A stretch of 64,000 nt of DNA from Candidatus Hikarchaeia archaeon HikBin5 (lineage in GTDB: Archaea; Halobacteriota; Halobacteria; Halobacteriales; Hikarchaeaceae): the NCBI GenBank assembly GCA_009889625.1, contig WTZU01000002.1, positions 12,472 through 76,471 on the forward strand, written 5' to 3'. Within the stretch, counting starts at the first letter, position 1. Each line of letters opens with the position of its first letter. A model generated the notes under the pieces. It ran no database searches. It was not told the origin of the DNA and saw only the letters and a program-made list of their open reading frames with translations. Made by a program: the position numbers and the translations under genes. Positions 249-33,378 of this stretch are shown here, one piece after another.

Positions 249-629
<381 letters not shown>

Positions 630-739
630 AATTCGGCATAATAATTGTCTAAATTTTTTGAAGGAATATCGTAAAAAATGCGTGTTATCGGTGGAGGGTA
701 AATTAGTTACATTTACACGCTAGGGAAGCACATACAGAG

Positions 740-1615
740 ATGATGGATAACAACAGTTCTGACATCGATATTGTTGTATTAACGAAGGGCGTGCCGGACT
801 TTCGAGAAGGAATAGTTTCATTTGATGAGCATGGACACTTGGAGAGGGGCAAAACTCCAACTGTCATGAATCCCAACGACCGCTTTGCTATGAGAGCGGC
901 CCTACAGACAAAAGTTCGTAGTGGTGGGAAAATTACAGTGATGAGCATGGGGCCTCCAGGATACAAAGAAATATTGCAAGAAGCCATGAACATCTATGCT
1001 GACGAATTGTACTTACTATCGGACAGAGAAATGGCAGCAGCAGACACATGGGCCACTGCCATAACCATTTGTTCAGCAGTGGAAAAACTTGACCCCACTC
1101 CAGATATTATTTTTGCGGGTTTTAAAACAGCAGATGGAGAAACGGGACATACGGGCCCCCAAACTAGTTGGGCACTTGAATGGCCAATAATCACACATGT
1201 AGTTAGTTTGGATGTGGATGTGAATGCGAGGAAGATAACAGCAAAAAGACTGGTTCAAGGAGATATTAAAGAGATAGAAACAGTAGAAGTAGATCTGCCT
1301 TGTTTTGTAATACCAGATCCAGAATTTGAAGCGGAATATCCAAGGGCTTCGCATAGGTTAAAATTACAAAATTTGACTGAAGAGACGCAAAAAAGATCTG
1401 AATCTTTTGAAGATACATTAACTATGTGGGACCATAAAGAATTGAATTTAGATCCAGATTTCATTGGCCTAGACGGATCCCCAACTATTGTTGGACGGGT
1501 GGATCCAATTCCAAAGGCGCCTTCAGATAGAGAAGCGAAGGTTCTAGATATAGAAACTAAGGGTGGGTTGGAAGAAGTACTGGGAATAGTAGCGCCTTTT
1601 GCGGGGGAGAAGTAG
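740..1615 (+). CDS. etfB: Electron transfer flavoprotein beta subunit (EtfB/FixA)
   Basis: 291 aa, N-terminal DIVVLTKGVPDF..., an ETF-beta-like fold signature. Its stop lies 1 nt before the etfA ATG. Confidence 0.85.
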   Translation: MMDNNSSDIDIVVLTKGVPDFREGIVSFDEHGHLERGKTPTVMNPNDRFAMRAALQTKVRSGGKITVMSMGPPGYKEILQEAMNIYADELYLLSDREMAAADTWATAITICSAVEKLDPTPDIIFAGFKTADGETGHTGPQTSWALEWPIITHVVSLDVDVNARKITAKRLVQGDIKEIETVEVDLPCFVIPDPEFEAEYPRASHRLKLQNLTEETQKRSESFEDTLTMWDHKELNLDPDFIGLDGSPTIVGRVDPIPKAPSDREAKVLDIETKGGLEEVLGIVAPFAGEK

Positions 1616-1616
1616 C

Positions 1617-3416
1617 ATGACAATTGATCCAAAAAAATTAACTATTGGGAAATTAGTGAAAGAGATTTCAAAGATAGAAAATGTCGAAGAATTGAACAAT
1701 ATACTAGTAGCAGAAGGAGAGGGCAAGGGTCGAAAAGGAGCGATAAGTGCGATTACAGAGCGCATTGGTAGTTTAGGAGATGATGAAATAAAGGAAGGAG
1801 ATATATTTGATCCCACTTCTCATGATATTCGAGAGATAGGTGCTGCGATCAAAGAGATAGAAGATGTAGAGATTTTAAAATCGATTTTAGATCTTGAAAA
1901 ATCGGGTGAGGGTAGAGCGAGTGCGATGGTATTGATCGAGAGTAGGATAAAGAAATTCTCAGAGAAAAATGTAGAAGGTGATCTCGATCTCAAATCGATG
2001 ACAATTGCAGGTATAGCAAATTCAATAAGGGCAATTGAAAGTGCAGATGAATTGAGAGAGTTGCTTACTCAAGAAGAGAGCGGAGAGAACAGAGTTGCAG
2101 TTAAAAAACAAATACAGAATAAAATAGAATCGATAGAAGGGATTGAAATACTCGAACCAATAGAGTATATTGCACCCGAAGAGAAGTACCCATATCTAAA
2201 TCATCCGACAGCAGATAAAAAGCATGTTCGTGCGTTAAAAGAGGGAAAATACGAAGATATGTGGGTGTATTGTGAAACGCAACGTGGGGAACTTATCGAT
2301 GTATCTAGAGAGATGTTAGGGAAGGCCCGGGAAATGATGGACAAATATAATCAGGATTACAAGGCAAAGGAGCGAGTCATAGCCGTTTTAATTGGGAAAG
2401 ATATCGCAGGTTTGGCAGAAGAATGTATTGGGCATGGGGCAGATGTTGTGATATATACAGAACATGATTCTTTGTCTCGTTTTATTCATACCGCCTATAC
2501 AAAAATTTTCTGTGACATGTCTCGTTCCAAACCGGAATGGAAAAAATATGATGAGCCAAGATATGTTATTTTTCCTGCGACAAATAATGGGAGGGATCTA
2601 TCGGCACAAGTACAAGCTGAACTAGATTCAGGTCTAGCTTCAGATTGTTCGGATTTATACATAGAAAACATAGTAATTACAAATCCTGTGAAAACGGGCA
2701 TGCCAGGAGCTAAGAAAAACTTTGAGAGAGTGCTCCATATGAAAAGGCCTGATTTCTCTGGATTTGAGTATTCCACAATCCTTTGTTTAGACAACCCACA
2801 CAGAGAATTTCATCCACAAGGAGCATCAGTCATCCCAAGGAGCTTCCCTGTTGGAGAATTCAATTCTGACAGAAAAGGAGAGGTATTTTGTCATGAGATG
2901 AAAGTTGAAGACGGGTGGGTTGATGTTGCAATCGTCGACAATGAAGAGGTTGAAATGGGGGTGGATTTAGCAGAATATGAAGTCATAGTATGTATGGGAA
3001 GAGGAATTGGAAAGGACCCCACAGGTGGAATTGATCTAGGATTGGAACTTGTAAGTATGTTTGATAATGCAGAATTGGGGATAACGAGAGGGATAGTTAC
3101 GTCCTCATACACCTTCGAAGGGAGAGTGGAACAATATGCAAAAGAAGAGAGACAGATAGGAGAGACTGGTCAGTGGATAAGTCCAAAATTATATATTGGA
3201 CTTGGAGTTTCGGGTGCCATTCAACATAAAACGGGGATGGTAGATTCGGAAATCATAGTCGCAATAAATGAAGATGAAAATGCAGATATTCGGGAGTTTG
3301 CAGATTATTTCATACATGGGGATTTATTTGAAATAATTCCCAAATTGGTAGAAGAGTTGAGTGTAGGGAAAAGTGGCCTAACAAAATTTATAAAGGGAGA
3401 AAAAAATAATGCATGA
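1617..3416 (+). CDS. etfA: Electron transfer flavoprotein alpha subunit (EtfA/FixB) with about 200-aa N-terminal repeat extension
   Basis: The C-terminal FAD-binding signature PKLYIGLGVSGAIQHKTGM and the ETF-alpha domain start near MWVYCETQRGELIDVS. The ATG at 1617 directly follows the etfB stop; the track's start at 1599 is a TTG. The N-terminal third contains three tandem repeats. Confidence 0.85.
   Translation: MTIDPKKLTIGKLVKEISKIENVEELNNILVAEGEGKGRKGAISAITERIGSLGDDEIKEGDIFDPTSHDIREIGAAIKEIEDVEILKSILDLEKSGEGRASAMVLIESRIKKFSEKNVEGDLDLKSMTIAGIANSIRAIESADELRELLTQEESGENRVAVKKQIQNKIESIEGIEILEPIEYIAPEEKYPYLNHPTADKKHVRALKEGKYEDMWVYCETQRGELIDVSREMLGKAREMMDKYNQDYKAKERVIAVLIGKDIAGLAEECIGHGADVVIYTEHDSLSRFIHTAYTKIFCDMSRSKPEWKKYDEPRYVIFPATNNGRDLSAQVQAELDSGLASDCSDLYIENIVITNPVKTGMPGAKKNFERVLHMKRPDFSGFEYSTILCLDNPHREFHPQGASVIPRSFPVGEFNSDRKGEVFCHEMKVEDGWVDVAIVDNEEVEMGVDLAEYEVIVCMGRGIGKDPTGGIDLGLELVSMFDNAELGITRGIVTSSYTFEGRVEQYAKEERQIGETGQWISPKLYIGLGVSGAIQHKTGMVDSEIIVAINEDENADIREFADYFIHGDLFEIIPKLVEELSVGKSGLTKFIKGEKNNA
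1638..2135 (+). repeat. Intragenic tandem protein repeat, three copies of about 45 aa, inside etfA
   Basis: Copy 1: IGKLVKEISKIENVEELNNILVAEGEGKGRKGAISAITERIGSL. Copy 2: IGAAIKEIEDVEILKSILDLEKSGEGRASAMVLIESRIKKF. Copy 3: IAGIANSIRAIESADELRELLTQEESGENRVAVKKQIQNKIESI. Copies are spaced 64 and 56 residues apart. Confidence 0.6.
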
Positions 3417-5070
3417 ATACGAACACTATGAAGCGATAGTAGTAGGAGCAGGCCCAGGTGGTGCTGCTGCTGCTGCGGTATTGACAGAGAATGATATTGA
3501 GACAATTGTGTTGGAAAGGGGAATAGAACCAGGATCAAAAAATGTTTCTGGTGGACTTATATACGCAGAGAATTCTGCCCCATACACTATCGACGGCCTC
3601 TTTCCAGAGTTCAGAAGAGAAGCTACAGAAAGGCCAATAACGGAATACCAACTTCACAATATATCAGGAGAGAAGGTTGCTTCATTTGATTTAAAAGGAC
3701 TTCACGAGTATGATACGAAATGGTGTGATTCGGTGCTTAGGAGGAAAATGGATTCTTGGTTATCAAAAGAAGTGCAAAGTAAAACCCAGGAAACAGGAGG
3801 AGGCCTGATAAATGGAATACATGTAAATGGATTATTGAGAGATGAGAATGGGAAGATTGAGGGAGTGACTTGTGACGAGATAGATCCAATTACAGCAGAT
3901 GTGGTGATTGCAGCGGATGGAGTAACATCTGAATTGGCTCGATCTTCGGGTTTGATGGATTGGGAACGTCCAGAAGAATGGTTCCAGGGTGTGAAAGTGG
4001 TCGTAGATCTAGAAGATGTGGACAATGTATTTGATCTGGAACCAGAAACTGGAATTGCCCACTTATTTTCAGGAGATCTTTTCGAAGGTGTCAGAGGAGG
4101 AGGATTTTTGTATACAAATCGGGAAACTCTATCAATTGGAACTGTATTTCATTTGGACAGTATCATGGAAGAGAAAGCAGAGAGTCATGAATTATTAAAC
4201 AAACTACTAACCCATCCATTATTGGGACAGTGGCTAAACAAGGATTATTGTGAACTAGAATATTCAGCAAAGCTAGTGCCAGATTCCAAAAAGGCCGCGA
4301 ATCCCAGTCCACACTTAGATCGCCTATTGCTTGTAGGAGATGCGGCAGGTCAAATGCAAGCCCAGGGGCCAATAATAAAAGGAATGAATCATGCCGTTAC
4401 AGCTGGTGCACTTGCTTCTGAAGCTTTTGTAGAGATGAAAAAGAAAGGGTCTGTTGAGAAAGCCGGTGAACGGTATGAATTGAAGCTTCGTCAAACAGGT
4501 CTAATGAGTAAACTCAGACCGCCAATGTATAGTGTCGTCAGGGCAGTTGGAGAGAATAGAGTTGCAACTACGATGGTAGATGGAATATTAACATCACCAG
4601 TTGGTAGGGTGGCAATAAGAGCAATAGGAAAGAGAATGGAAAAGTTATACAACATACCCCTTCTTTCAATGGCAATACCAGATACCGCCACCCCATATGT
4701 TACTCTGCCAACAATAATTGGCCAAGAAGTGGGAGAAATAATTAAGATTAAGAATCCAGTAAGCCCCCCAGAATTGGCAGATAGAATTAGTAAATTGGCA
4801 TATGACACAGATATAGGGAAGCCCCACATCGAACTTCTAGATAATTCATATGCAGCAAGTGGCACTGCAGTAACTGCATGTCCGGTTAGTGCTATTGGAT
4901 TTGGAGGAGGGTGTTATCGTATGGAAGAAGTAGAGGTAAACGGGGAGATTGAACTTCGAATTAGTTTAGATACACAACCTTGTATTGAATGTGGTACATG
5001 TGCAGTGACGGCCACAACTGAATGGAGCAATCCAAGAGGAAACAAAGGTGTCGAATTCAAGTACGGATGA
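3409..5070 (+). CDS. fixC: ETF:quinone/ferredoxin oxidoreductase FixC fused to a FixX-like ferredoxin domain
   Basis: N-terminal FAD fold VVGAGPGGAAAAAVL. The C-terminus (CPVSAIGFGGGCY ... QPCIECGTCAV ... PRGNKGVEFKYG) matches the FixX pattern. The gene overlaps the etfA stop by 8 nt. Confidence 0.85.
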   Translation: MHEYEHYEAIVVGAGPGGAAAAAVLTENDIETIVLERGIEPGSKNVSGGLIYAENSAPYTIDGLFPEFRREATERPITEYQLHNISGEKVASFDLKGLHEYDTKWCDSVLRRKMDSWLSKEVQSKTQETGGGLINGIHVNGLLRDENGKIEGVTCDEIDPITADVVIAADGVTSELARSSGLMDWERPEEWFQGVKVVVDLEDVDNVFDLEPETGIAHLFSGDLFEGVRGGGFLYTNRETLSIGTVFHLDSIMEEKAESHELLNKLLTHPLLGQWLNKDYCELEYSAKLVPDSKKAANPSPHLDRLLLVGDAAGQMQAQGPIIKGMNHAVTAGALASEAFVEMKKKGSVEKAGERYELKLRQTGLMSKLRPPMYSVVRAVGENRVATTMVDGILTSPVGRVAIRAIGKRMEKLYNIPLLSMAIPDTATPYVTLPTIIGQEVGEIIKIKNPVSPPELADRISKLAYDTDIGKPHIELLDNSYAASGTAVTACPVSAIGFGGGCYRMEEVEVNGEIELRISLDTQPCIECGTCAVTATTEWSNPRGNKGVEFKYG

Positions 5071-5443: not shown

Positions 5444-6106
5444 TTAAATGGGAGAAAGGTAGCTTTCCCATAGATCAAGCGTAATGGAATCTGATTCGGT
5501 GTAAGAAGTCCCCCATAATTCCTGTGCTGAAAATCTGACTTTGTACACTGGTTCGGCCCGGGGAGAACCTTCTACAATAGAATCGGGAAGGGGGAAAGTT
5601 CCGAAAATTTGTTCTATCGTTCCAATTCGTTTCTGTGCATAGGATGGAGACCGGGAATGGCCAAATTTATTGTTGGGGTTTACAAGTACATTATCACCTA
5701 CTTTGAAATTTGGTTTTGTAGATTTTACATCTTTGAGATTGCTTTTTTTGAAAGATTGCAATACTTTTTCAAGTAGATCGGGAATGGATTTATTTTCGAT
5801 AGAGATATCATTCGTGGAATAGAGCTCTATGCGGGAGTTGATCTCAGATTGGGTTAGAATTCCTTTTTCCACCAATAACATTTCAATGCAATCGAGCCAT
5901 TTTTCAAAATAGCTAAGTTGGAGATATCTAGAAGGAGAAATTCGTTCTGCTGCATGTCGTTTTTCATCGACATTGCAAATGCCATGTAATTGAATTATTT
6001 TAGATATTGCAAATGTATCTTTTTCCCATTGTTCGTGGAAGATGGCAGAATCCATTTTGATTGGACCAAATCCATGTGTCCCACCTAAATCATGTATGGC
6101 TTTCAT
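5444..6106 (-). CDS. Nitrile hydratase beta subunit-like protein (no alpha subunit nearby)
   Basis: N-terminus MKAIHDLGGTHGFGPI...FHEQWE, central LVEKGILTQSE, and C-terminal YKVRFSAQELWG...DLWESYLSP all follow the nitrile hydratase beta pattern. Confidence 0.75.
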   Translation of the reverse strand: MKAIHDLGGTHGFGPIKMDSAIFHEQWEKDTFAISKIIQLHGICNVDEKRHAAERISPSRYLQLSYFEKWLDCIEMLLVEKGILTQSEINSRIELYSTNDISIENKSIPDLLEKVLQSFKKSNLKDVKSTKPNFKVGDNVLVNPNNKFGHSRSPSYAQKRIGTIEQIFGTFPLPDSIVEGSPRAEPVYKVRFSAQELWGTSYTESDSITLDLWESYLSPI

Positions 6107-9004: not shown

Positions 9005-9715
9005 ATGTGTGACGATAAATCATATAGAACAGATGGTGGAAAGGGCATTACCGTCCAGCAAGCAGTGGATGCCGCGTATGAAAAAACATTTAGCGGGAAA
9101 AGAACGTATGTGACAGCTTTAGAAACAGATAGATATGACTATAAAGATGTATGGGAGAGCCTCAGAGATCCAGAGAAAAGATTGATCAGAGGGAGTGAAA
9201 TACCAATGAAAGCCAAATCCTCACCCCCACAAGGGTCTCAAACATGGGGGAAGCAATTTGTGAGGCCATGGTCGGGGATTACTCAATCGTTGCAAATGCA
9301 CTACAGAGTACTTGCCCCAGAGGGACATGGAAAAAAGCACTATCATCAGAATGAGGCTATGTTGTACATTCTAGAAGGAGAAGGGTATGAGATTCATGAT
9401 GGGGAAGAATATAAATGGGAAGCAGGAGATCTTGCAATTATAAGAGGAGGAACAGTTCATCGTCACTACAGTTCAGACCCAGAAAATCTATGCAAAGGTT
9501 TGATTATAAAACCAAAGGCAGTATGTCAATTTTTACATCTTTTATACCAAGGATTTGCAGAAAACTATCCTTCGGAGAGGTGTCGTGTGGATTCTGAATG
9601 GACACCCAATGAATTGTGGACAGATAAAAAGCAATTGTACCATGCAGGAGACTTACTAGATACAATATCACACAAAGAAGATGCACAAAAAGAGCGCGTT
9701 AAGGAGAGGATATAA
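9005..9715 (+). CDS. Cupin-domain protein, large subunit of split-cupin pair, copy A
   Basis: Cupin motif KKHYHQNEAMLYILEGEGYEIHDGEEYKWEAGDLAIIRGGTVHRHY. It is a paralog of 32593..33378. Confidence 0.7.
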   Translation: MCDDKSYRTDGGKGITVQQAVDAAYEKTFSGKRTYVTALETDRYDYKDVWESLRDPEKRLIRGSEIPMKAKSSPPQGSQTWGKQFVRPWSGITQSLQMHYRVLAPEGHGKKHYHQNEAMLYILEGEGYEIHDGEEYKWEAGDLAIIRGGTVHRHYSSDPENLCKGLIIKPKAVCQFLHLLYQGFAENYPSERCRVDSEWTPNELWTDKKQLYHAGDLLDTISHKEDAQKERVKERI

Positions 9716-9716
9716 T

Positions 9717-10319
9717 ATGGCAGATAAATACATACACAAAGAAGAAAGGCTATCCTACAATAAAGGTGAAAAGACTGCTTCATACTATGGTGAGGCAATA
9801 GAAACGTCTAAACAAAACCCCATTGCCCAACATGGAAGTGGGCCTGATAAGAAGGTCATCAAGCCAGAAGAAATGCCTTGGGAATATTCTCAACAGGGAA
9901 TATTGAAACATGTAATAAATGAGAAATTAGCAAAGGAATTGGGTGCTTCTGTGAGAGGGACAGACATATACATGCAAGTCATACCCCCAGGAGGCAGATC
10001 TGGGAAACACCGACATATGAGTGAGGAATTAATTTTTGTGATAGAAGGGGAAGGATATGATCTACATTGGGACCCTACACTGCATGTAGGACAAGATGTT
10101 GCTCATTGGACATATCCAGAAGAAGCACTTAGATTTGATTGGATACCAGAAGATGTCATATATATACCGACAAATACAGTTCATCAACATTTTAATAAAA
10201 GTCAAGAAAAGCCTGCAAGAATTCTATGTTGTCAAAATAGACTTTACAATACACTTGGTTATGGAATGGAAGATCTAGAACAATTTGAAAACTCGCCCGA
10301 ATATGAGGAAAATAATTAA
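9717..10319 (+). CDS. Cupin-domain protein, small subunit of split-cupin pair, copy A (putative metal-dependent dioxygenase-like)
   Basis: Canonical cupin motif 1 GGRSGKHRHMSEELIFVIEGEG and motif 2 IYIPTNTVHQHFN. The ATG lies 1 nt after the upstream stop. It is a paralog of 31904..32587. Confidence 0.75.
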   Translation: MADKYIHKEERLSYNKGEKTASYYGEAIETSKQNPIAQHGSGPDKKVIKPEEMPWEYSQQGILKHVINEKLAKELGASVRGTDIYMQVIPPGGRSGKHRHMSEELIFVIEGEGYDLHWDPTLHVGQDVAHWTYPEEALRFDWIPEDVIYIPTNTVHQHFNKSQEKPARILCCQNRLYNTLGYGMEDLEQFENSPEYEENN

Positions 10320-10681
10320 GATTCGATATAAATTAAATCGTTTTCGATGAGAAGTTTATAGGGCTTTAAGTTCATATCAGGAAAGGATAGGCATTTTCCA
10401 GATGGAATGTGATATTGGAGTTGGTGCCAGGGGCAGCTGACAACTTCTCCTTGGTAATCCCATGTTAAGTTGAAATCATTTTCGCGCTTCCCATAAAGAG
10501 TTCCTTCGTGAATTGCACCGTTGTCACATAGAGGTCCATATTGATGGGGGCAAACATTGGGGATTGCATGGAAATTTCCTTCAATGTTGAACAAGCCTAT
10601 TTCGACCCGCCCTATCCTAACTATTTTATGCCCCCCAATAGGAACATCTTTTGTTTTAGCTACTAGGTGTTTTTTTGCCAT
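10316..10681 (-). CDS. Rieske [2Fe-2S] domain protein (NirD/ferredoxin-like)
   Basis: CPHQYGPLC ... CPWHQLQY Rieske ligand motifs. It starts 5 nt downstream of the amidohydrolase stop. Confidence 0.8.
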   Translation of the reverse strand: MAKKHLVAKTKDVPIGGHKIVRIGRVEIGLFNIEGNFHAIPNVCPHQYGPLCDNGAIHEGTLYGKRENDFNLTWDYQGEVVSCPWHQLQYHIPSGKCLSFPDMNLKPYKLLIENDLIYIES

Positions 10682-10686
10682 GGTGG

Positions 10687-11790
10687 TTAAATACTATAAA
10701 GTTTTTTGGCGTTTAAACCCCAGATATTTTCTTTGGCTTCTTTGGATATGGGCATAGATTGAATTGCACCCGCATCGTCCCAATCATGGTGAGGGATATC
10801 TGTTGCAAATACAGCAGTTTCCTCCCCATTCACTTGTTCGAGGAGAACAGCTAGCTCAGAGGGATTTTCTGGTACTTCAATCGGGTGAGTTCCAATATAA
10901 AATTCATCTATGTACTCAGATGGTCTTTTTTCTAGAAGGGGTGCTTGTTCCCTATGTTGCATGTATTCACGGTCGAGGCGGTACGCAGTCATGGGCATCC
11001 AGGACAGACCAGCTTCAAGAAAAACGAATTTTAGTTCGGGGTAAAGTACAGGGATTCCTTCATTTACTATGTGCATACAGTTTACTACAAGAGATAATTC
11101 ATGGGCGAGTGTGTGTCTTGTCAAATAAGGAAGTTTATGCATATTGAATGGGAATTCGGGGAAATCCACGCCTACGCTATGGAATGCAATTGGTAATGAA
11201 TGCTCAGTTGCTGCTTCCCAAATGGGACGATAGGTGGAATGGCCATATGTTCTATCTAGGCCACCAATTGGTAGAAAAATGGCTTTCATTTGTTTCTCAT
11301 TTGCCACTCTATCAATTTCTTCAGCTGCAGCATGAGGATCGTGTGGAGCTACCGCGATGGCACCTATTAGGGCATCGCTTTGGTCTAGAAATCGGTCGAT
11401 TAAGTAGTCATTGTATGCACTAGCGAAAGCATTGGCATACTCTACGGATTGTAATATGGGGATTTTAAGAGCATTTTCTCCAAAGAGGACTCCAATGTCG
11501 ACATGATATTTTTTTAATTCCCGTTCGGTGTTTTCTCCATTAGTTAAATCGGGACGTTTAGCATGTTTGGATGCAGGAGAATTTCTAAAGATATCCCCCA
11601 ATTTCATTCCAGGCATATAGCCAGGTGTATCACGGTATCGGTAGGATTTCTCATAGCGTCGGACGGCGTCGTCATAAGGAGGTTCAAAATACTTTGCCAT
11701 CAAACCAGGAGGTTCCTCTATATGGACGTCATTATCTACAACGAAGACATCTTCTAGGGGGCTTTTAGAATTGGATTCGGATTTGGCCAT
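10687..11790 (-). CDS. Amidohydrolase-2 (ACMSD/decarboxylase-like) family protein
   Basis: N-terminal VVDNDVHIEEP (DxHxH-type metal site), 367 aa, and a TIM-barrel hydrolase-like pattern with later conserved His/Asp residues (FHSVGV, ATDIPHHD). Confidence 0.7.
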   Translation of the reverse strand: MAKSESNSKSPLEDVFVVDNDVHIEEPPGLMAKYFEPPYDDAVRRYEKSYRYRDTPGYMPGMKLGDIFRNSPASKHAKRPDLTNGENTERELKKYHVDIGVLFGENALKIPILQSVEYANAFASAYNDYLIDRFLDQSDALIGAIAVAPHDPHAAAEEIDRVANEKQMKAIFLPIGGLDRTYGHSTYRPIWEAATEHSLPIAFHSVGVDFPEFPFNMHKLPYLTRHTLAHELSLVVNCMHIVNEGIPVLYPELKFVFLEAGLSWMPMTAYRLDREYMQHREQAPLLEKRPSEYIDEFYIGTHPIEVPENPSELAVLLEQVNGEETAVFATDIPHHDWDDAGAIQSMPISKEAKENIWGLNAKKLYSI

Positions 11791-12525: not shown

Positions 12526-13008
12526 ATGGCGTCGAACCGAAATCACATGTTTGAATCGGGTGAATTTGTTTCGAAGAATGTAGAACCAATTGCAGACGTC
12601 CAGATACAACCAAATGGTGTTGATCTTACTCTTTGTTGTGTATTTATCCAGACAGGAAAGGGGCGCATAGAGAAAGGAGGGAAAGAAATTGGAGATCGTG
12701 AAGAAGTAGAAGCCAAGAATGGCAAGTATAAATTAAAACCAGGAGGGTACATAATCAGATATTTTGAAACTGTGAGTATTCCGGAAGGGAATGTTGGATT
12801 TATCTACCCACGTTCTTCGATGCTTCGGAATTCATGCATGGTTAATACGGCAGTATGGGATTCAGGATATAAAGGAAAGGGAGAGAGCTTTTTGCAAGTT
12901 TACAGAGAAATTGAGATAGAAAAAGGAGCCAGAGTTGCACAAATAATTTTTGCCCGCGGGGAAAATTCGGGCGTATATGCAGGAGGATATCAAGGAGAAA
13001 ATTTATAA
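12526..13008 (+). CDS. dut: dUTP diphosphatase, archaeal DCD/DUT family
   Basis: About 160 aa from the ATG at 12526. QPNGVDLTL and IYPRSSMLRNSCMVNTAVWDSGYKGKG match the dCTP deaminase/dUTPase fold, and the short length fits Dut. Confidence 0.75.
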   Translation: MASNRNHMFESGEFVSKNVEPIADVQIQPNGVDLTLCCVFIQTGKGRIEKGGKEIGDREEVEAKNGKYKLKPGGYIIRYFETVSIPEGNVGFIYPRSSMLRNSCMVNTAVWDSGYKGKGESFLQVYREIEIEKGARVAQIIFARGENSGVYAGGYQGENL

Positions 13009-15417
13009 TTCCGTCAATCCAGCTTCGACGAGGCGAGGGAGGACATGCCGGGGGGTCAATGGACCCTCGAAAAATCGAATTCCTGTTGCGTCATAAACCG
13101 CGTTTGCAACCGCTGCCGGAACAGGGACAGTAGAACATTCACCAGCTCCCTTTTGGCCATGGGAAGTGGAGGGATCTGGATTCTCAAGCTCGTCTATCTT
13201 AGTGATCATAGGAACGTCTGCAGCAGTGGGGAGGTGATAATCAACCAGAGATCCGTTTTCTAGGTTCCCACTTGAATCATATACCATTTCCTCAAGTAAT
13301 ATTTCACCTAGTCCGTGTATAATCCCACCTTGAGTTTGTCCTTCCAGAAGTTTTGGATTGATCAATTTTCCGACATCTTCACATATTGCTGCATCAACTA
13401 CTTGGACTACACCAGTTCCGGGATCAATCTCCACAATGACCCCAAATGCCCCAAATGTATATCCATGGGATATATTTCCGGTTCCGGTTTCAGGGTCTAA
13501 AAATTCTGCCTCGAGTGTTTCAAACTTGGCTGCACCTACCAGAGACACACCTTTTCTGAAAATTTTTGGACGGTCTTCTGGGTCGCCAAATGTAGCTTTG
13601 TGTGCTAGTTCTTTCATAGTCATTCCATTTTCTGGATTTCCTTTTTCGTGAATTAATCCATTCACGATTTCTACATCTTCATCGTTTATTTTTAAGAGCC
13701 ATGCAGAAAGTGAAACGATGGTTTGTTTTAAATTTTCTGCGGCCATTGCAGCTGAAGTTCCACCCATAATAGTTCCCCTATCCGCCCAGACCCCCATATC
13801 ATCTGGAGTTATATCAGAATCCCCTATAACAGGAGTTACATCTTCTGTAGAGATTCCAAGGACGTCGGCAACGATCTGGCAAAGTGCAGTTTCTGTCCCT
13901 TGTCCTATACTGCAAATGCCAGAAAAGACGGTGACTTGCCCATAATGGTTCATCTGAACTATCGCTGAGGAATAATCAGCCCCTTTTGCACTTTTATTTC
14001 CCGCACGTTTCATAATTGTTGCCATGCCAATTCCGCGAAGTTTACCATCATTGCGTTTGGCATTATTACGTTCTTTATCCCATTCGAGACGGTCGCTGAC
14101 TATCCGGAGACACTCTGGCATGTCAGAATTTACCCATTTGAGACCAGAAGGTGTTCGGAGAGGCATGTCTTCTATTTTAGGAACGTTTTTGAGTCGGAGC
14201 TCGACAGGATCCATCCCCAATTCTTCGGCAGCCATGTCAACTAGTTGTTCTCGAACATAAGTGAATTGTGGATCGCCATACCCCCTTACTGCAGATCCTG
14301 GCATTACGTTGGTATACACGACAGATCCTTTGATGCGTTGATTGGGGATAGGGTAAGGACCAGAACAGGTAGCCATCGCGGAAAATGCTATTGTTTTTCC
14401 GAAGCTCCCATATGCACCGGTGTTTTGGAACATTTCGATGTCCATTCCAACGATGGTACCATCTTTTTTCAAACCTAATTTTGCATCGAATGTCTCAGGA
14501 TGTCTGCCCCGACCTGCTTTTAATTCTTCTATCCTATCGAGAACTATGTTAATTGGTTTTCCAGTCTCCATGGCGAGTACTGACGCACATATTTCATGAG
14601 AAAATAGCTCTAGTTTGACGCCGAAGCCACCTCCAATGTCTGGCATTTTACAGACTACCTGCTCTACTTCTAGACCGAAAATGGTGTCGGCAACATACTT
14701 CCTCAATAGATGTGGCACTTGATTTGAAGACCACAGGGTTAATTTGGGAGCAGCTCGGTCATAATGGGCAACGCAACCGTGGGGCTCTAGGGGAGAGGGA
14801 TTTGTTTTGTGTGTTTTGAAAGATCCTTCCACGATTAGATCTGCTTCTGATAAAGGGTCCTCGTAATTGCCGACGTGAACGTGGCATGTATTTAGCAGAT
14901 TTCCTTTGACTTCGCAAACGGGGTCATCACTTAAAGTGGGGTGGAGAACAGGAGCACCTTCGGCCAATGCATCTTTAATAGTAACAACCGCAGGTAGTTT
15001 TTCATATTCGACATGGACTAAATCTGCTGCTTCGATGGCTATATTTTTAGTTTTTGCCAATACAATGGCAACTTCATCTCCGACGTAACGGACTTTATCG
15101 GATGCTAGAGCCTCTTCATCGGGGCGGGTTAGACTAGGATGGCCGAATGGTTTTACATATGGATCAATATCCTCAGCAGTCCAAACCAACTCAACTCCTG
15201 GGAATGCTTTTGCCTCACTTGTATCGATTGAAATTATCCGTGCGTGGGCATGTGGGCTTCTTACAAATCTTGCATATAGCATCCCAGGGAGATGGAGATC
15301 GTCGATGAATTGTCCTTGTCCTGTGACTAATTTTTTCCCTAGTTTGCTATTGACACGTTTCCCTATCTCACGGCTTTTGAGAATTTCTTCATTGGATAAT
15401 ATGGCTTGGCTACTCAT
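13003..15417 (-). CDS. Molybdopterin-dependent hydroxylase large subunit (xanthine dehydrogenase/aldehyde oxidase/CoxL family)
   Basis: 804 aa. It has an a/b-hammerhead N-terminus (LPGMLYARFVRSPHAHARI), SAVRGYGDPQF, and C-terminal molybdopterin-binding domains. Confidence 0.85.
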   Translation of the reverse strand: MSSQAILSNEEILKSREIGKRVNSKLGKKLVTGQGQFIDDLHLPGMLYARFVRSPHAHARIISIDTSEAKAFPGVELVWTAEDIDPYVKPFGHPSLTRPDEEALASDKVRYVGDEVAIVLAKTKNIAIEAADLVHVEYEKLPAVVTIKDALAEGAPVLHPTLSDDPVCEVKGNLLNTCHVHVGNYEDPLSEADLIVEGSFKTHKTNPSPLEPHGCVAHYDRAAPKLTLWSSNQVPHLLRKYVADTIFGLEVEQVVCKMPDIGGGFGVKLELFSHEICASVLAMETGKPINIVLDRIEELKAGRGRHPETFDAKLGLKKDGTIVGMDIEMFQNTGAYGSFGKTIAFSAMATCSGPYPIPNQRIKGSVVYTNVMPGSAVRGYGDPQFTYVREQLVDMAAEELGMDPVELRLKNVPKIEDMPLRTPSGLKWVNSDMPECLRIVSDRLEWDKERNNAKRNDGKLRGIGMATIMKRAGNKSAKGADYSSAIVQMNHYGQVTVFSGICSIGQGTETALCQIVADVLGISTEDVTPVIGDSDITPDDMGVWADRGTIMGGTSAAMAAENLKQTIVSLSAWLLKINDEDVEIVNGLIHEKGNPENGMTMKELAHKATFGDPEDRPKIFRKGVSLVGAAKFETLEAEFLDPETGTGNISHGYTFGAFGVIVEIDPGTGVVQVVDAAICEDVGKLINPKLLEGQTQGGIIHGLGEILLEEMVYDSSGNLENGSLVDYHLPTAADVPMITKIDELENPDPSTSHGQKGAGECSTVPVPAAVANAVYDATGIRFFEGPLTPRHVLPRLVEAGLTEL

Positions 15418-31783: not shown

Positions 31784-31857
31784 GGGTCGGTGGTCTAGTT
31801 GGTTAGGACGTCGCATTCACATTGCGGAGATCGCCAGTTCGAATCTGGCTCGACCCA
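31784..31857 (+). tRNA. tRNA-Val (anticodon CAC)
   Basis: Hand-folded cloverleaf: acceptor GGGTCGG/TCGACCC, D stem GTCT/GGAC, anticodon stem TCGCA/TGCGG with loop TTCACAT, T arm GCCAG-TTCGAAT-CTGGC, discriminator A. No CCA is encoded. Confidence 0.9.
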
Positions 31858-31903: not shown

Positions 31904-32587
31904 TTATTCTTTGAATTCGGGTGCGTTTTCAAATTGTTCTAGATCGTTGAAGCCGAGTCCTAGGTGATTATAGATGCGTGCATTGCAGCAAAGTAGTCTT
32001 GCTGGTCGGTCTTCACTGGCATTTACATGCTGATGTGCAGTATTAGTCGGGATGAAGATTACATCGTTTGTTTCCCATAGGAATTTTTGAGGTTCTTTTG
32101 GCCATTCCCATATAACTTTGTCCCTCATGACAGCGGTTGGGTCCCAATGGAGATCATATCCCTCTCCATCTAAGACAAATACTAGTTCTTCGCTCATATG
32201 CCGGTGTTTACCTGATTTTCCTCCAGGAGGTATAACCTGCATATACAGATCGGTGTTGACTGCGCCAGTGGGGCCAAGATCCCTTTCCATTTTCTCATTG
32301 AGAAGCCATTTTATTTTACCTTGCGGAGAATCCTCCCATGGCATTTCTTCTGGTTTAATGATTTTATGAAGAGGTCCACGGGGGCCATGTTGAGAAAGTG
32401 GATTCTTTTTGGAATCGTCAAGGAATTCTTGGTAATGAGAAGTAGTAAGAGTTCCACGTTCCCATTCCTCCCGTTCATCCATGTGGATATAGTCGTCTGG
32501 AACCATTTCCTGGGTTCTTTTTCTATGACGAGGTATATGGTCGAATTCGTAATTATGAGGATCTTCAAATTCGGTGTTTTCAGACAT
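31904..32587 (-). CDS. Cupin-domain protein, small subunit of split-cupin pair, copy B
   Basis: GGKSGKHRHMSEELVFVLDGEGYDLHWDP and IFIPTNTAHQHVN. By eye it is roughly 60% identical to 9717..10319 over the core. Confidence 0.75.
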   Translation of the reverse strand: MSENTEFEDPHNYEFDHIPRHRKRTQEMVPDDYIHMDEREEWERGTLTTSHYQEFLDDSKKNPLSQHGPRGPLHKIIKPEEMPWEDSPQGKIKWLLNEKMERDLGPTGAVNTDLYMQVIPPGGKSGKHRHMSEELVFVLDGEGYDLHWDPTAVMRDKVIWEWPKEPQKFLWETNDVIFIPTNTAHQHVNASEDRPARLLCCNARIYNHLGLGFNDLEQFENAPEFKE

Positions 32588-32592
32588 GATTA

Positions 32593-33378
32593 TTATACAC
32601 CAGACCTCTGAGTTGCGGATTTAACTGCTGCCTCTTCCTTGGAGAGCATCTGTCGCATCTGTGCATATTGATCATGGTCCTCTTTGGAATATTCTTCTCG
32701 TCCAACATTCCAATCAAATGGTGGAACCCAATTGGGATCTTTTGCCCGGTCTCCAGGTGTATGTCTAACAGTTCCTTGATATACAAGATGTAAGAAATTA
32801 TAGATGGGGAGAGAGTTGTAAACTAAAAGGCGGCAGGGTTTATCGGGATCAACAGAATAATGTTCGTGGACACATCCACCATGAATCACGATTAAATCCC
32901 CCGCCTCCCAAATATATTCCTCTCCGTCGTGGATTTCATATCCTTTACCTTCCAATACATACATCATCGCTTCATTTTGATGAGAATGTTTTTTATCGTC
33001 CGCTTCAGGTGCAAGTACACGTTCCATAAGAGACATACTTTGAGTCCTTCCTTTCCAAGGGCGAACATAGGATCTTCCCCATGCTTTTGAACCCTCAAGT
33101 AGGGAATTTTCGGTTTTAGACTTGAGTGGGATTTCAGATCCTTTTACAATTCGTTTCGCAGGGTCCCTCAGTGCAGCCCAAACTTCACGGTTGTCAAAAT
33201 GGCGCTCTGCCATTTCTTGTATGAAAATCCTACGATTGCTGTATACCTTGTCTGCAGGGCAATCTACCGCCTGAATAGTTGTTGTGGCCCCGCCGTCTGC
33301 TCTTACTTCTAATAGACCTCTGTGCCGCTTCCCGGCATGATCCGGGTCAGAGGGATGTTTGTGGTTATTTATTGGCAT
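32593..33378 (-). CDS. Cupin-domain protein, large subunit of split-cupin pair, copy B
   Basis: KKHSHQNEAMMYVLEGKGYEIHDGEEYIWEAGDLIVIHGGCVHEHY. It is a paralog of 9005..9715 and keeps the same order relative to the small subunit. Confidence 0.7.
   Translation of the reverse strand: MPINNHKHPSDPDHAGKRHRGLLEVRADGGATTTIQAVDCPADKVYSNRRIFIQEMAERHFDNREVWAALRDPAKRIVKGSEIPLKSKTENSLLEGSKAWGRSYVRPWKGRTQSMSLMERVLAPEADDKKHSHQNEAMMYVLEGKGYEIHDGEEYIWEAGDLIVIHGGCVHEHYSVDPDKPCRLLVYNSLPIYNFLHLVYQGTVRHTPGDRAKDPNWVPPFDWNVGREEYSKEDHDQYAQMRQMLSKEEAAVKSATQRSGV

Follow-up and report, generated by a model that had tools for sequence, protein, structure and literature searches.

A two-gene cupin module in a Marine Group IV (Hikarchaeia) archaeon: a candidate split bicupin with remote likeness to ring-cleaving dioxygenases

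Two adjoining cupin genes, encoding a large (L) and a small (S) protein, were analyzed in a 64,000-nucleotide (nt) stretch of DNA from Candidatus Hikarchaeia archaeon HikBin5 (contig WTZU01000002.1, positions 12,472 to 76,471; hereafter the window), where the pair occurs twice, as copies A and B (Table 1). Very probably, L and S represent a split bicupin, that is, an enzyme architecture of two subunits with two metal sites. The reading that is tentatively favored as a whole goes further: the two paralogous monocupins of ~200 amino acids (aa) would assemble as one heteromeric split-bicupin metalloenzyme, in which L would be the catalytic subunit and would use O2 for C–C (ring) cleavage; its substrate would be an aromatic or N-heteroaromatic compound with hydroxyl and carboxylate groups, bound in bidentate fashion to the L metal.

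Cupin dioxygenases are textbook single-gene enzymes, either homo-oligomers of a monocupin or bicupins; hydroquinone dioxygenase is, to our knowledge, the only cupin dioxygenase with different subunits, one of which is dead. The L/S pair differs from both of these architectures and constitutes a widespread, uncharacterized family; it would join two unlike subunits, each with a complete metal site of a different kind (3-His and 3-His-1-Glu), and its conservation ranges from Hikarchaeia and Nitrososphaerota among archaea to Burkholderiales and Firmicutes among bacteria.

Gene order, paralogy and natural fusions

The initial annotation, made from the DNA sequence and its open reading frames (ORFs), had described both genes as monocupins, and a profile search agrees: against Pfam Cupin_2 (PF07883; gathering cut-off 27.2), L scored 47.1 bits (E = 2e-12) and S 45.6 bits (E = 5.9e-12); S_A also matched Pfam Auxin_BP (E = 1.8e-9). 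The two subunits align with each other over nearly their full length, through the N-terminal arm, the barrel and the C-terminal segment (BLASTP E = 3e-11, 21% identity; hhalign probability 99.2%, E = 1.4e-19), and are evidently paralogs; in this alignment, S carries an insertion of ~17 residues between its two cupin motifs. The AlphaFold2 model of S is a cupin β-barrel with a predicted local distance difference test (pLDDT) score of 78; L modeled alone gave a poor result (pLDDT 50.7), confident in the barrel core only. The N- and C-terminal segments of L are conserved yet of low confidence in the model, which would fit folding against a partner, as weak evidence for one.

In copy A, the genes lie in different reading frames, and a single nucleotide (9716) separates the stop codon of L_A from the start codon of S_A; the coordinates and the 1-nt spacing of the initial annotation are exact, and all of its quoted motifs are found in the translations (HYHQNEA, LEGEGY and GGTVHRHY in L; GKHRHMSEE, EGEGY and PTNTVHQHFN in S). 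A Shine-Dalgarno-like run, AAGGAGAGG, falls inside the 3' end of L_A, 8–16 nt 5' of position 9717. An alternative S_A start, ATG 9681, gives a longer ORF and is used by a Tara gene call (P0028). The start at 9717 is preferred because the stop-N-start arrangement with exactly 1 nt is present in 6/6 Marine Group IV relatives (five with ATG and the sixth with GTG), because the 9681 ATG is not conserved (absent in L012 and GTG in L010, both Marine Group IV relatives), and because of the AAGGAGAGG run. L and S would be co-transcribed and translationally coupled.

Table 1. Positions of the cupin genes and of other features in the window, counted from its first nucleotide.
Feature	Position	Strand	Remarks
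4Fe-4S ferredoxin, electron-transfer flavoprotein (ETF) β, long ETF α, FixC-like flavoprotein cluster	255..5070	+	
Nitrile-hydratase β-subunit-like protein	5444..6106	-	NHase_beta N and C domains
L_A, large cupin subunit, 236 aa	9005..9715	+	ATG 9005, TAA 9713-9715
Coupling junction	9701..9719	+	Shine-Dalgarno-like AAGGAGAGG 9701-9709, TAA 9713-9715, 1 base, ATG 9717-9719
S_A, small cupin subunit, 200 aa	9717..10319	+	ATG 9717, TAA 10317-10319
Rieske [2Fe-2S] ferredoxin, 121 aa, CPH...CPWH	10316..10681	-	Pfam Rieske E 9.7e-14
Predicted amidohydrolase-related dinuclear oxygenase (ARO), 367 aa	10687..11790	-	Pfam Amidohydro_2; convergent with the pair
Mo-hydroxylase (xanthine/CO dehydrogenase family) large subunit	13003..15417	-	
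NicO-like membrane protein, ~217 aa	30082..30735	+	NiCoT-type HX4DH motif EHTFEADH
tRNA gene	31784..31857	+	
S_B, second small subunit, 227 aa	31904..32587	-	tblastn E 5e-78; 58% identical to S_A
L_B, second large subunit, 261 aa	32593..33378	-	tblastn E 3e-67; 49% identical to L_A

The wording "copy A" in the initial annotation implied a copy B, and a second pair is indeed present on the minus strand at 31904-33378. The S_B start lies 5 nt past the L_B stop, and L_B has the same ligand set as L_A (KKHSHQNEA ... GGCVHEHYS). L_B is retained in the Marine Group IV metagenome-assembled genomes (MAGs) L015-L020 and L022, and the N-terminal extension of S_B (…PHNYEFDHIPRH…) is kept in the relatives L018-L020. 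L_A shares 93% identity with proteins from Marine Group IV/Hikarchaeia MAGs such as HikBin1, an archaeal aSUI1 is encoded just 5' of L, and the G+C content of the window is 39.7%; the source of the window is, by these sequence markers, a Marine Group IV (Hikarchaeia) archaeon. Hikarchaeia have been characterized as aerobic heterotrophs with streamlined genomes of ~1.2 Mb and possible use of aromatic compounds (PMC7599335). The retention of two L-S pairs in a genome of this size suggests that the pair is important to the cell; two copies in a streamlined deep-ocean archaeon suggest, further, that a common marine dissolved organic compound is being handled.

In a pattern scan that covered one genome per GTDB species, an L relative was encoded at 349 loci, of which the best 80 were retrieved; S-type proteins number more than 3000. 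Hidden Markov models (HMMs) for L and S, built from the two alignments, were then run on those 80 loci and on loci retrieved via S homologs, and yielded 108 L-type and 74 S-type ORFs in ~85 loci from many phyla. S is located directly 3' of L on the same strand for 68 of the 108 L-type ORFs, and 72 of the 74 S-type ORFs adjoin an L; the reverse order, S-L, occurs in four loci, all of them in Saccharospirillum. Stop and start codons overlap in L001 and L007 and are spaced by 0 nt in L005 and by 1 nt in Marine Group IV. The archaeal carriers include haloarchaea (Natrinema, Haloferacaceae), Nitrososphaerota, Thermoplasmataceae and Archaeoglobi; among bacteria, the pair is found in Firmicutes (Alicyclobacillus, Paenibacillus, Ammoniphilus, Peptococcaceae), Marinobacter, Caulobacter, many Burkholderiales, and Acidobacteriota. 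The recurrence of L-S adjacency is far beyond chance, and the L-S gene pair is both ancient and widespread.

The two genes have also been joined repeatedly. When 1.84 billion representative proteins were scanned exhaustively with the L-profile HMM, 53 matched at E ≤ 1e-30 and 366 at E ≤ 1e-10, and several of the top matches were 325–384 aa long. Seven natural L-S fusions were identified (P0149, P0150, P0153, P0158, P0159, P0173 and P0207), all with clean halves, that of L N-terminal (113–221 bits) and that of S C-terminal (109–249 bits), so that the gene order is kept; they fall into different 50%-identity clusters, are mutually divergent, and are rare, with 1–3 sequences per cluster. The contigs retrieved for P0149 and P0158 contain genes whose translations are the query proteins. 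In the logic of Rosetta-stone proteins, these fusions indicate that L and S function as a single unit, and they back the proposal of the initial annotation that a bicupin-like arrangement has been split into two polypeptides; single-chain bicupins carry both barrels on one polypeptide, whereas the pair in the window consists of two ORFs that are fused only in homologs elsewhere. Another apparent fusion, the 321-aa P0084, was set aside as a probable frameshift artefact with an Arg/Ser-rich, out-of-frame-looking middle.

Metal sites and distance from characterized cupins

Residue conservation was evaluated over 106 distinct L homologs and 70 S homologs. The proposed metal site of L consists of H112 and H114 in motif 1 and H152 in motif 2, which are invariant (106/106); equally invariant are Ala118 at the canonical Glu position, four residues past the second His, and the residues H154, H131, D132, N116, Y121, R59 and Q182. 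S has a proposed 3-His-1-Glu site (H98, H100, E104 and H156), together with H158, the invariant R99, and Q87, with no ligand missing from either copy in the window; the claim of the initial annotation that each subunit has its own complete set of metal ligands is therefore upheld. It also pointed to a gentisate-like HRH motif; the small subunit with HRH has Glu104 and hence a 3-His-1-Glu site, unlike gentisate dioxygenases, and the 3-His site type that defines salicylate and gentisate dioxygenases (PMC10306065) belongs to the large subunit (HYH...A118), as the alignment with the Silicibacter pomeroyi gentisate dioxygenase GDOsp (3BU7) and salicylate dioxygenase (SDO) indicates.

In ten Burkholderiales-type loci (L037, L039, L041, L042, L044, L058, L059, L067, L076 and L079), the S site has decayed, with H100 replaced by Q together with a replacement of H156 by S, T or C, yet the gene is kept beside an invariant L. 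Since L is invariant while the S site degenerates in one subclade, L is taken to be the catalytic subunit, which is probable but well short of certain. L would combine its 3-His metal site with a second-sphere His154, in the ligand arrangement of the class III ring-cleaving dioxygenases (gentisate, salicylate, 5-nitrosalicylate). S would contribute a second barrel with its own site; its dispensability in some bacteria suggests an auxiliary role, either structural or as a second or regulatory metal center. The Burkholderiales-type S appears to show a bicupin-like enzyme in which one barrel is turning vestigial while its gene is retained; comparable cases are the C-terminal barrel of many bicupin dioxygenases, which is vestigial, and the hydroquinone dioxygenase subunit that lacks metal (PMC10306065). 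Fusions and decaying second sites would together amount to a natural experiment on the origin of bicupins and on the conversion of one barrel into a relic.

The relationship to named families is distant. On the gentisate 1,2-dioxygenase profile TIGR02272 (cut-off 442.1), L scored 23.7 bits and the copy-B S 16.9 bits; on the 5-aminosalicylate dioxygenase profile NF049978 (cut-off 650), the scores were 24.9 bits for L and 17.5 bits for S. The best solved relative of both subunits is GDOsp (profile E = 5.2e-12 for L and 1.7e-11 for S), and sequence and profile searches of the PDB returned nothing closer than E ~1e-11. Source annotations of the homologs are generic ("cupin domain-containing protein," "quercetin dioxygenase-like," "mannose-6-phosphate isomerase-like"), and some homologs were automatically named "gentisate 1,2-dioxygenase" by JGI; a well-characterized family with a known substrate that would accommodate both genes was not found in these searches.

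The functional residues of SDO are only partly matched. Arg127, which is essential for catalysis in salicylate and gentisate dioxygenases (PMC10306065), is absent from both subunits: its position, six residues past the second motif-1 His, is occupied by F (85), M (13) or L (8) at residue 120 of L, and by L, V or I at residue 106 of S. His162 has an equivalent in both (L H154, 106/106; S H158, 68/68), and the carboxylate-binding Gln108 has one in S (Q87, 56/69) and none in L (E or R at 101); at Arg83, the alignment is unreliable. The accepted class III member 5-nitrosalicylate 1,2-dioxygenase (NaaB, 8CH4) also lacks Arg127 and has Tyr in its place (PMC10306065). Like L and S, NaaB is a monocupin of ~200 aa with an N-terminal extension, and like L it has a 3-His site, binding Fe(II), and no Arg127; it matches L weakly (profile E = 1e-3, Foldseek rank 5). 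However, NaaB assembles as a homotetramer from a single kind of subunit and has ~39% identity to the gentisate dioxygenase of E. coli, whereas L/S is a hetero-pair and far more distant.

These comparisons leave intact one part of the likeness to gentisate dioxygenases that had been proposed initially, namely that 3BU7 is the closest characterized and solved relative and that HxH in motif 2 is common to both; scores far below threshold and the missing Arg127 stand against the rest. Evidently, the L/S pair is not a gentisate dioxygenase, and at most a very distant branch of this class. GDOsp and L/S have in common two metal-competent barrels per functional unit, HxH in motif 1 and in motif 2, and, in L, the Ala at the Glu position that is found in gentisate dioxygenases; yet GDOsp is a single bicupin polypeptide of ~370 aa with a metal site in each barrel, L/S is encoded by two genes, and the Glu ligand of S has no counterpart in gentisate dioxygenases. 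That the pair might be a genuine gentisate (or salicylate or 5-aminosalicylate) 1,2-dioxygenase, a bicupin merely split into two genes, is suggested by its best named matches and by some of the JGI names, but it is very improbable in view of scores at ~5% of the curated cut-offs, the lack of Arg127 in both subunits and of Gln108 in L, the Glu ligand of S, and a window that contains no genes for maleylpyruvate isomerase or hydrolase.

Other cupins offer partial analogies. The hydroquinone 1,2-dioxygenases PnpCD and HapCD are encoded by adjacent genes and form α2β2 heterotetramers. They resemble L/S in being ring-cleaving enzymes with two different cupin-containing subunits, but only one of their subunits has a functional metal site, of the 2-His-1-Glu type (PMC10306065), whereas both L and S have complete sites and that of L is 3-His. 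PDB sequence searches with L and S returned no hydroquinone dioxygenase chains up to E = 1, and the likeness is best described as an architectural analogy with no detectable homology.

For S, the best structural match is the auxin-binding protein ABP1 (1LR5; Foldseek E = 1.9e-9, TMq 0.53), which is also its second-best sequence match (profile E = 3.2e-9); S H98, H100, E104 and H156 align with His, His, Glu and His of ABP1, which we take to be its Zn ligands, and ABP1 likewise has an insertion between the motifs. Unlike S, ABP1 is a secreted, receptor-like, non-enzymatic plant protein with no partner subunit. The Ni/Fe acireductone dioxygenase and the Ni/Co quercetinase have the 3-His-1-Glu site of S and match L weakly (E = 4e-4), but they are single-subunit enzymes with unrelated substrates and show no family-level match to L/S. 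Both are metal-promiscuous enzymes and provide a precedent for the use of Ni or Co.

Oxygen-dependent ring cleavage and its rivals

The dioxygenase-like reading is based on the nearest named families and structures, which are gentisate and 5-aminosalicylate dioxygenases, in combination with the Ala at the Glu position, the HxH of motif 2 and the Gln108 equivalent in S; it is also based on neighbors in other genomes that are typical of ring-cleavage pathways (FAA_hydrolase, Abhydrolase_1, RraA-like, Amidohydro_2, and Mo-hydroxylase subunits). In the window, the pair converges with two genes that bear on this question. The Amidohydro_2 gene at 10687-11790 is predicted to encode not a hydrolase but an ARO, a dinuclear (Fe2 or Mn/Fe) monooxygenase; its best PDB match is 8SM7 (E = 4.4e-48), followed by 8SM8, 8SM6 (SfbO), AibH2 and PtmU3, and its C-terminal signature DIPHHD conforms to the D-x-P-H-x-D motif of AROs (PMC13154177). 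The adjoining gene for a small Rieske ferredoxin overlaps the S_A stop codon with its 3' end by 4 nt; the pairing of an ARO with a small Rieske ferredoxin has been reported previously, as the way in which AROs were found (PMC10811679). The ARO is syntenic in Marine Group IV, and the related locus L001 has a 31%-identical homolog near its pair as well as further copies of the ARO/Rieske-ferredoxin pair. By adjacency, the ARO is a probable pathway partner of L/S. The aerobic host and the adjoining ARO/Rieske ferredoxin make O2-dependent cleavage the likeliest reaction, and an O2-dependent ring-cleaving dioxygenase is proposed for this aerobic host as a possibility rather than a probability. If the function of L/S were resolved, a missing step in the turnover of (hetero)aromatic carbon in the sea might be identified, and AROs might gain a physiological context.

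Gene neighborhoods elsewhere were surveyed in 86 loci, with Pfam-labeled reference proteins as queries; neighbor clustering by all-against-all BLAST was abandoned, since spurious alternate-frame ORFs dominate in high-GC genomes. The most frequent neighbors were an ABC binding protein of the SBP_bac_1 type (46/86 loci), a paralogous bicupin "B" of ~365 aa (40/86), a β-hydroxyacid dehydrogenase (NAD_binding_2; 31/86), a thiamine pyrophosphate (TPP) enzyme (27/86) and an EutA-like ATPase (22/86), followed by Amidohydro_2 (20/86), Abhydrolase_1 (15/86), TctC and OCD/µ-crystallin (14/86 each), a LigXa-like Rieske oxygenase (12/86) and RraA-like proteins (8/86). Bicupin B, which has no counterpart in the window, is usually found beside the EutA-like ASKHA ATPase; its N-terminal barrel lacks the HxH pair and its C-terminal barrel is intact (for example L003 12482-15213, L005 4672-7341, L032 and L037), and it sometimes follows L in place of S.

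Several of these clusters resemble lower aromatic ring-cleavage pathways, such as the Nitrososphaerota operon L-S-(PhnD-like)-Amidohydro_2-α/β-hydrolase-FAA_hydrolase, and a Marinobacter cluster with RraA-like, Amidohydro_2 and α/β-hydrolase genes 5' of two L-S pairs with TctABC; these polycarboxylate transporters recur near the pair. Homologs of the NicX family, which includes 2,5-dihydroxypyridine dioxygenase, are found beside one fusion (L090, 1352-2581, together with an ABC transporter) and beside the second pair of an Archaeoglobi locus (L021, 7464-8873), which hints at N-heteroaromatic substrates. The TPP enzyme, NAD_binding_2, Mo-hydroxylase, NicX-like and PhnD-like neighbors also brought other pathways into consideration; for purine/ureide, inositol, sulfonate/phosphonate and nicotinate pathways, no locus contains a complete gene set. 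Searches of seven bacterial and archaeal loci against Rfam returned no riboswitch or leader that would name a ligand.

A number of observations weigh against the heteromeric, O2-dependent enzyme that is tentatively favored here. The likeness to ring-cleaving dioxygenases is remote and confined to the barrel core, and the essential Arg127 is missing; Foldseek searches of the PDB with the L and S models retrieved hundreds of generic cupins (TM ~0.3–0.5) without a functional lead; and full-text literature searches on heteromeric, split or two-subunit cupins and on clusters of cupin, UbiD and Tct genes turned up no account of the pair (an Advenella "two cupin" match concerned an unrelated mercaptosuccinate dioxygenase). 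Housekeeping genes (SUI1, GNAT, dCTP deaminase) interrupt the neighborhood in the window, so that the ARO is linked to the pair by proximity and synteny only. Lone L genes (between binding-protein genes), a lone S (L087) and loci with L followed by a bicupin also exist, which suggests that the heteromer is the rule but perhaps not obligate.

The pair occurs, moreover, in lineages presumed from taxonomy to be strict anaerobes. In the Archaeoglobi genome JdFR-42 (L021, 798-9813), the gene order UbiD-L-S-UbiD-MFS is accompanied by a second pair in the order S-L, the NicX-like gene and TctC; a Peptococcaceae MAG (L078, 7806-15470) has the order L-S-DASS transporter-UbiD-CbiM; and the S homologs include a protein from Syntrophales. 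UbiD is found near the pair in five loci, and one fusion (L091) is located among three UbiD genes, TctABC and Mo-hydroxylase subunits; the solved structure nearest to the neighboring UbiDs is that of phenazine-1-carboxylate decarboxylase (7PDA, E = 1e-88 to 1e-102). The theme common to aerobes and anaerobes is therefore polycarboxylate import combined with non-oxidative decarboxylases or hydroxylases of (hetero)aromatic acids, and not O2 chemistry as such. The UbiD operons of Archaeoglobi and Peptococcaceae weigh against an obligate O2 requirement throughout the family, and the ring cleavage proposed in the initial annotation is kept here in conditional form.

Since this UbiD and transporter theme extends across aerobes and presumed anaerobes, an O2-independent reaction is a strong rival, if an unlikely one when taken by itself. 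The heteromeric split bicupin would be the same, but its metal, maybe Ni, Co or Mn, would act as a Lewis acid on an unsaturated or aromatic polycarboxylate; isomerization or tautomerization, hydration, hydrolysis, lyase cleavage and support of (de)carboxylation are the candidate reactions, beside non-oxidative decarboxylases. In addition to the UbiD operons and the Syntrophales homolog, this alternative is consistent with the missing Arg127 and with the fact that many cupins are non-redox enzymes. Suggestive but weak hints at Ni or Co come from neighboring genes, including NicO (Alicyclobacillus, Paenibacillus), CbiM (Peptococcaceae), CobW (Marinobacter) and a NicO-like protein with an HX4DH motif, and from a few His-rich L tails; however, such tails occur in only 3/105 L ORFs, all archaeal, and the NicO-like Pfam matches remain below the curated cut-off. 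Several points count against this alternative: aerobes predominate among the carriers, the MAG carriers are taken to be anaerobic from their taxonomy, the ligand set of L is of the dioxygenase type, and the pair in the window adjoins an O2-dependent ARO hydroxylase system. A bolder version, in which L/S would be the founding example of an ancient, O2-independent, heteromeric cupin class with two metal centers, maybe for Ni or Co, is distinctly less likely; if true, the partners would be decarboxylases of the prenylated-FMN (prFMN)/UbiD type in anaerobes and dinuclear ARO hydroxylases in aerobes, on an undescribed catabolic route for (hetero)aromatic polycarboxylates common to archaea and bacteria.

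A different alternative disputes the complex itself: L and S could be two separate homo-oligomeric cupins that catalyze consecutive steps of a pathway. Monocupins are usually homodimers or homotetramers, for example 5-nitrosalicylate dioxygenase (PMC10306065), both subunits of this genome have full metal sites, and the lone L, the lone S and the L-bicupin pairs without S point in the same direction. Against this, seven independent fusions preserve the gene order, L and S adjoin each other almost universally and tightly, from overlap to a few nucleotides, across domains of life, L models poorly on its own, and the S of one subclade has lost two metal ligands together and still stays beside L, as a non-catalytic partner would; separate enzymes are therefore improbable. 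A non-enzymatic pair that binds a small molecule or a metal, as a sensor, storage protein or metallochaperone, would agree with the structural and Pfam matches of S to a non-enzymatic Zn cupin and with the His-rich L tails, but is scarcely credible given the absence of DNA-binding or signaling domains, the consistent placement of the pair within catabolic and transport clusters, and the many invariant, non-ligand polar residues around the site that are typical of an active site.

Surroundings of the two copies in the window

In the window and in Marine Group IV relatives, copy A is embedded in a conserved gene order: nitrile-hydratase-β-like protein, Zn-dependent alcohol dehydrogenase (Zn-ADH), OCD/µ-crystallin and aSUI1 on the upstream side, then L and S, and the convergent Rieske and Amidohydro_2 genes, GNAT, dCTP deaminase and the Mo-hydroxylase large subunit on the downstream side. 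The nitrile-hydratase β-subunit-like protein has no α subunit nearby; in five loci of Marine Group IV, its gene keeps synteny with those for the Zn-ADH and the two cupins, and the protein could be metallochaperone-like or otherwise diverged. The gene for the Mo-hydroxylase large subunit is close to the L/S pair, and the 404-nt gap between it and a luciferase-like monooxygenase gene contains no ORF of at least 150 aa; Mo-hydroxylase subunits are also found near the pair in Thermoplasmataceae, in Nitrososphaerota, and at the fusion locus among three UbiD genes mentioned above.

Near copy B, at a distance of 1.2 kb, a membrane protein is encoded that scores 20 bits on Pfam NicO, below the cut-off of 27.7; its homologs are found near L-S in the copy-B loci of Marine Group IV and in a second archaeal lineage (L001, 11902-12558), and it may link the cupins to Ni/Co supply. 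A tRNA gene, the sole match in an Rfam search of the window, is located between a gene for a PduO-type cobalamin adenosyltransferase and the 3' end of S_B. Upstream of the conserved gene order of copy A, the ferredoxin and ETF cluster encodes an unusually built ETF α of 605 aa, with an N-terminal extension of ~220 aa that consists of repeated charged helical segments, and a FixC-like flavoprotein of 553 aa with a Cys-rich C-terminal tail.

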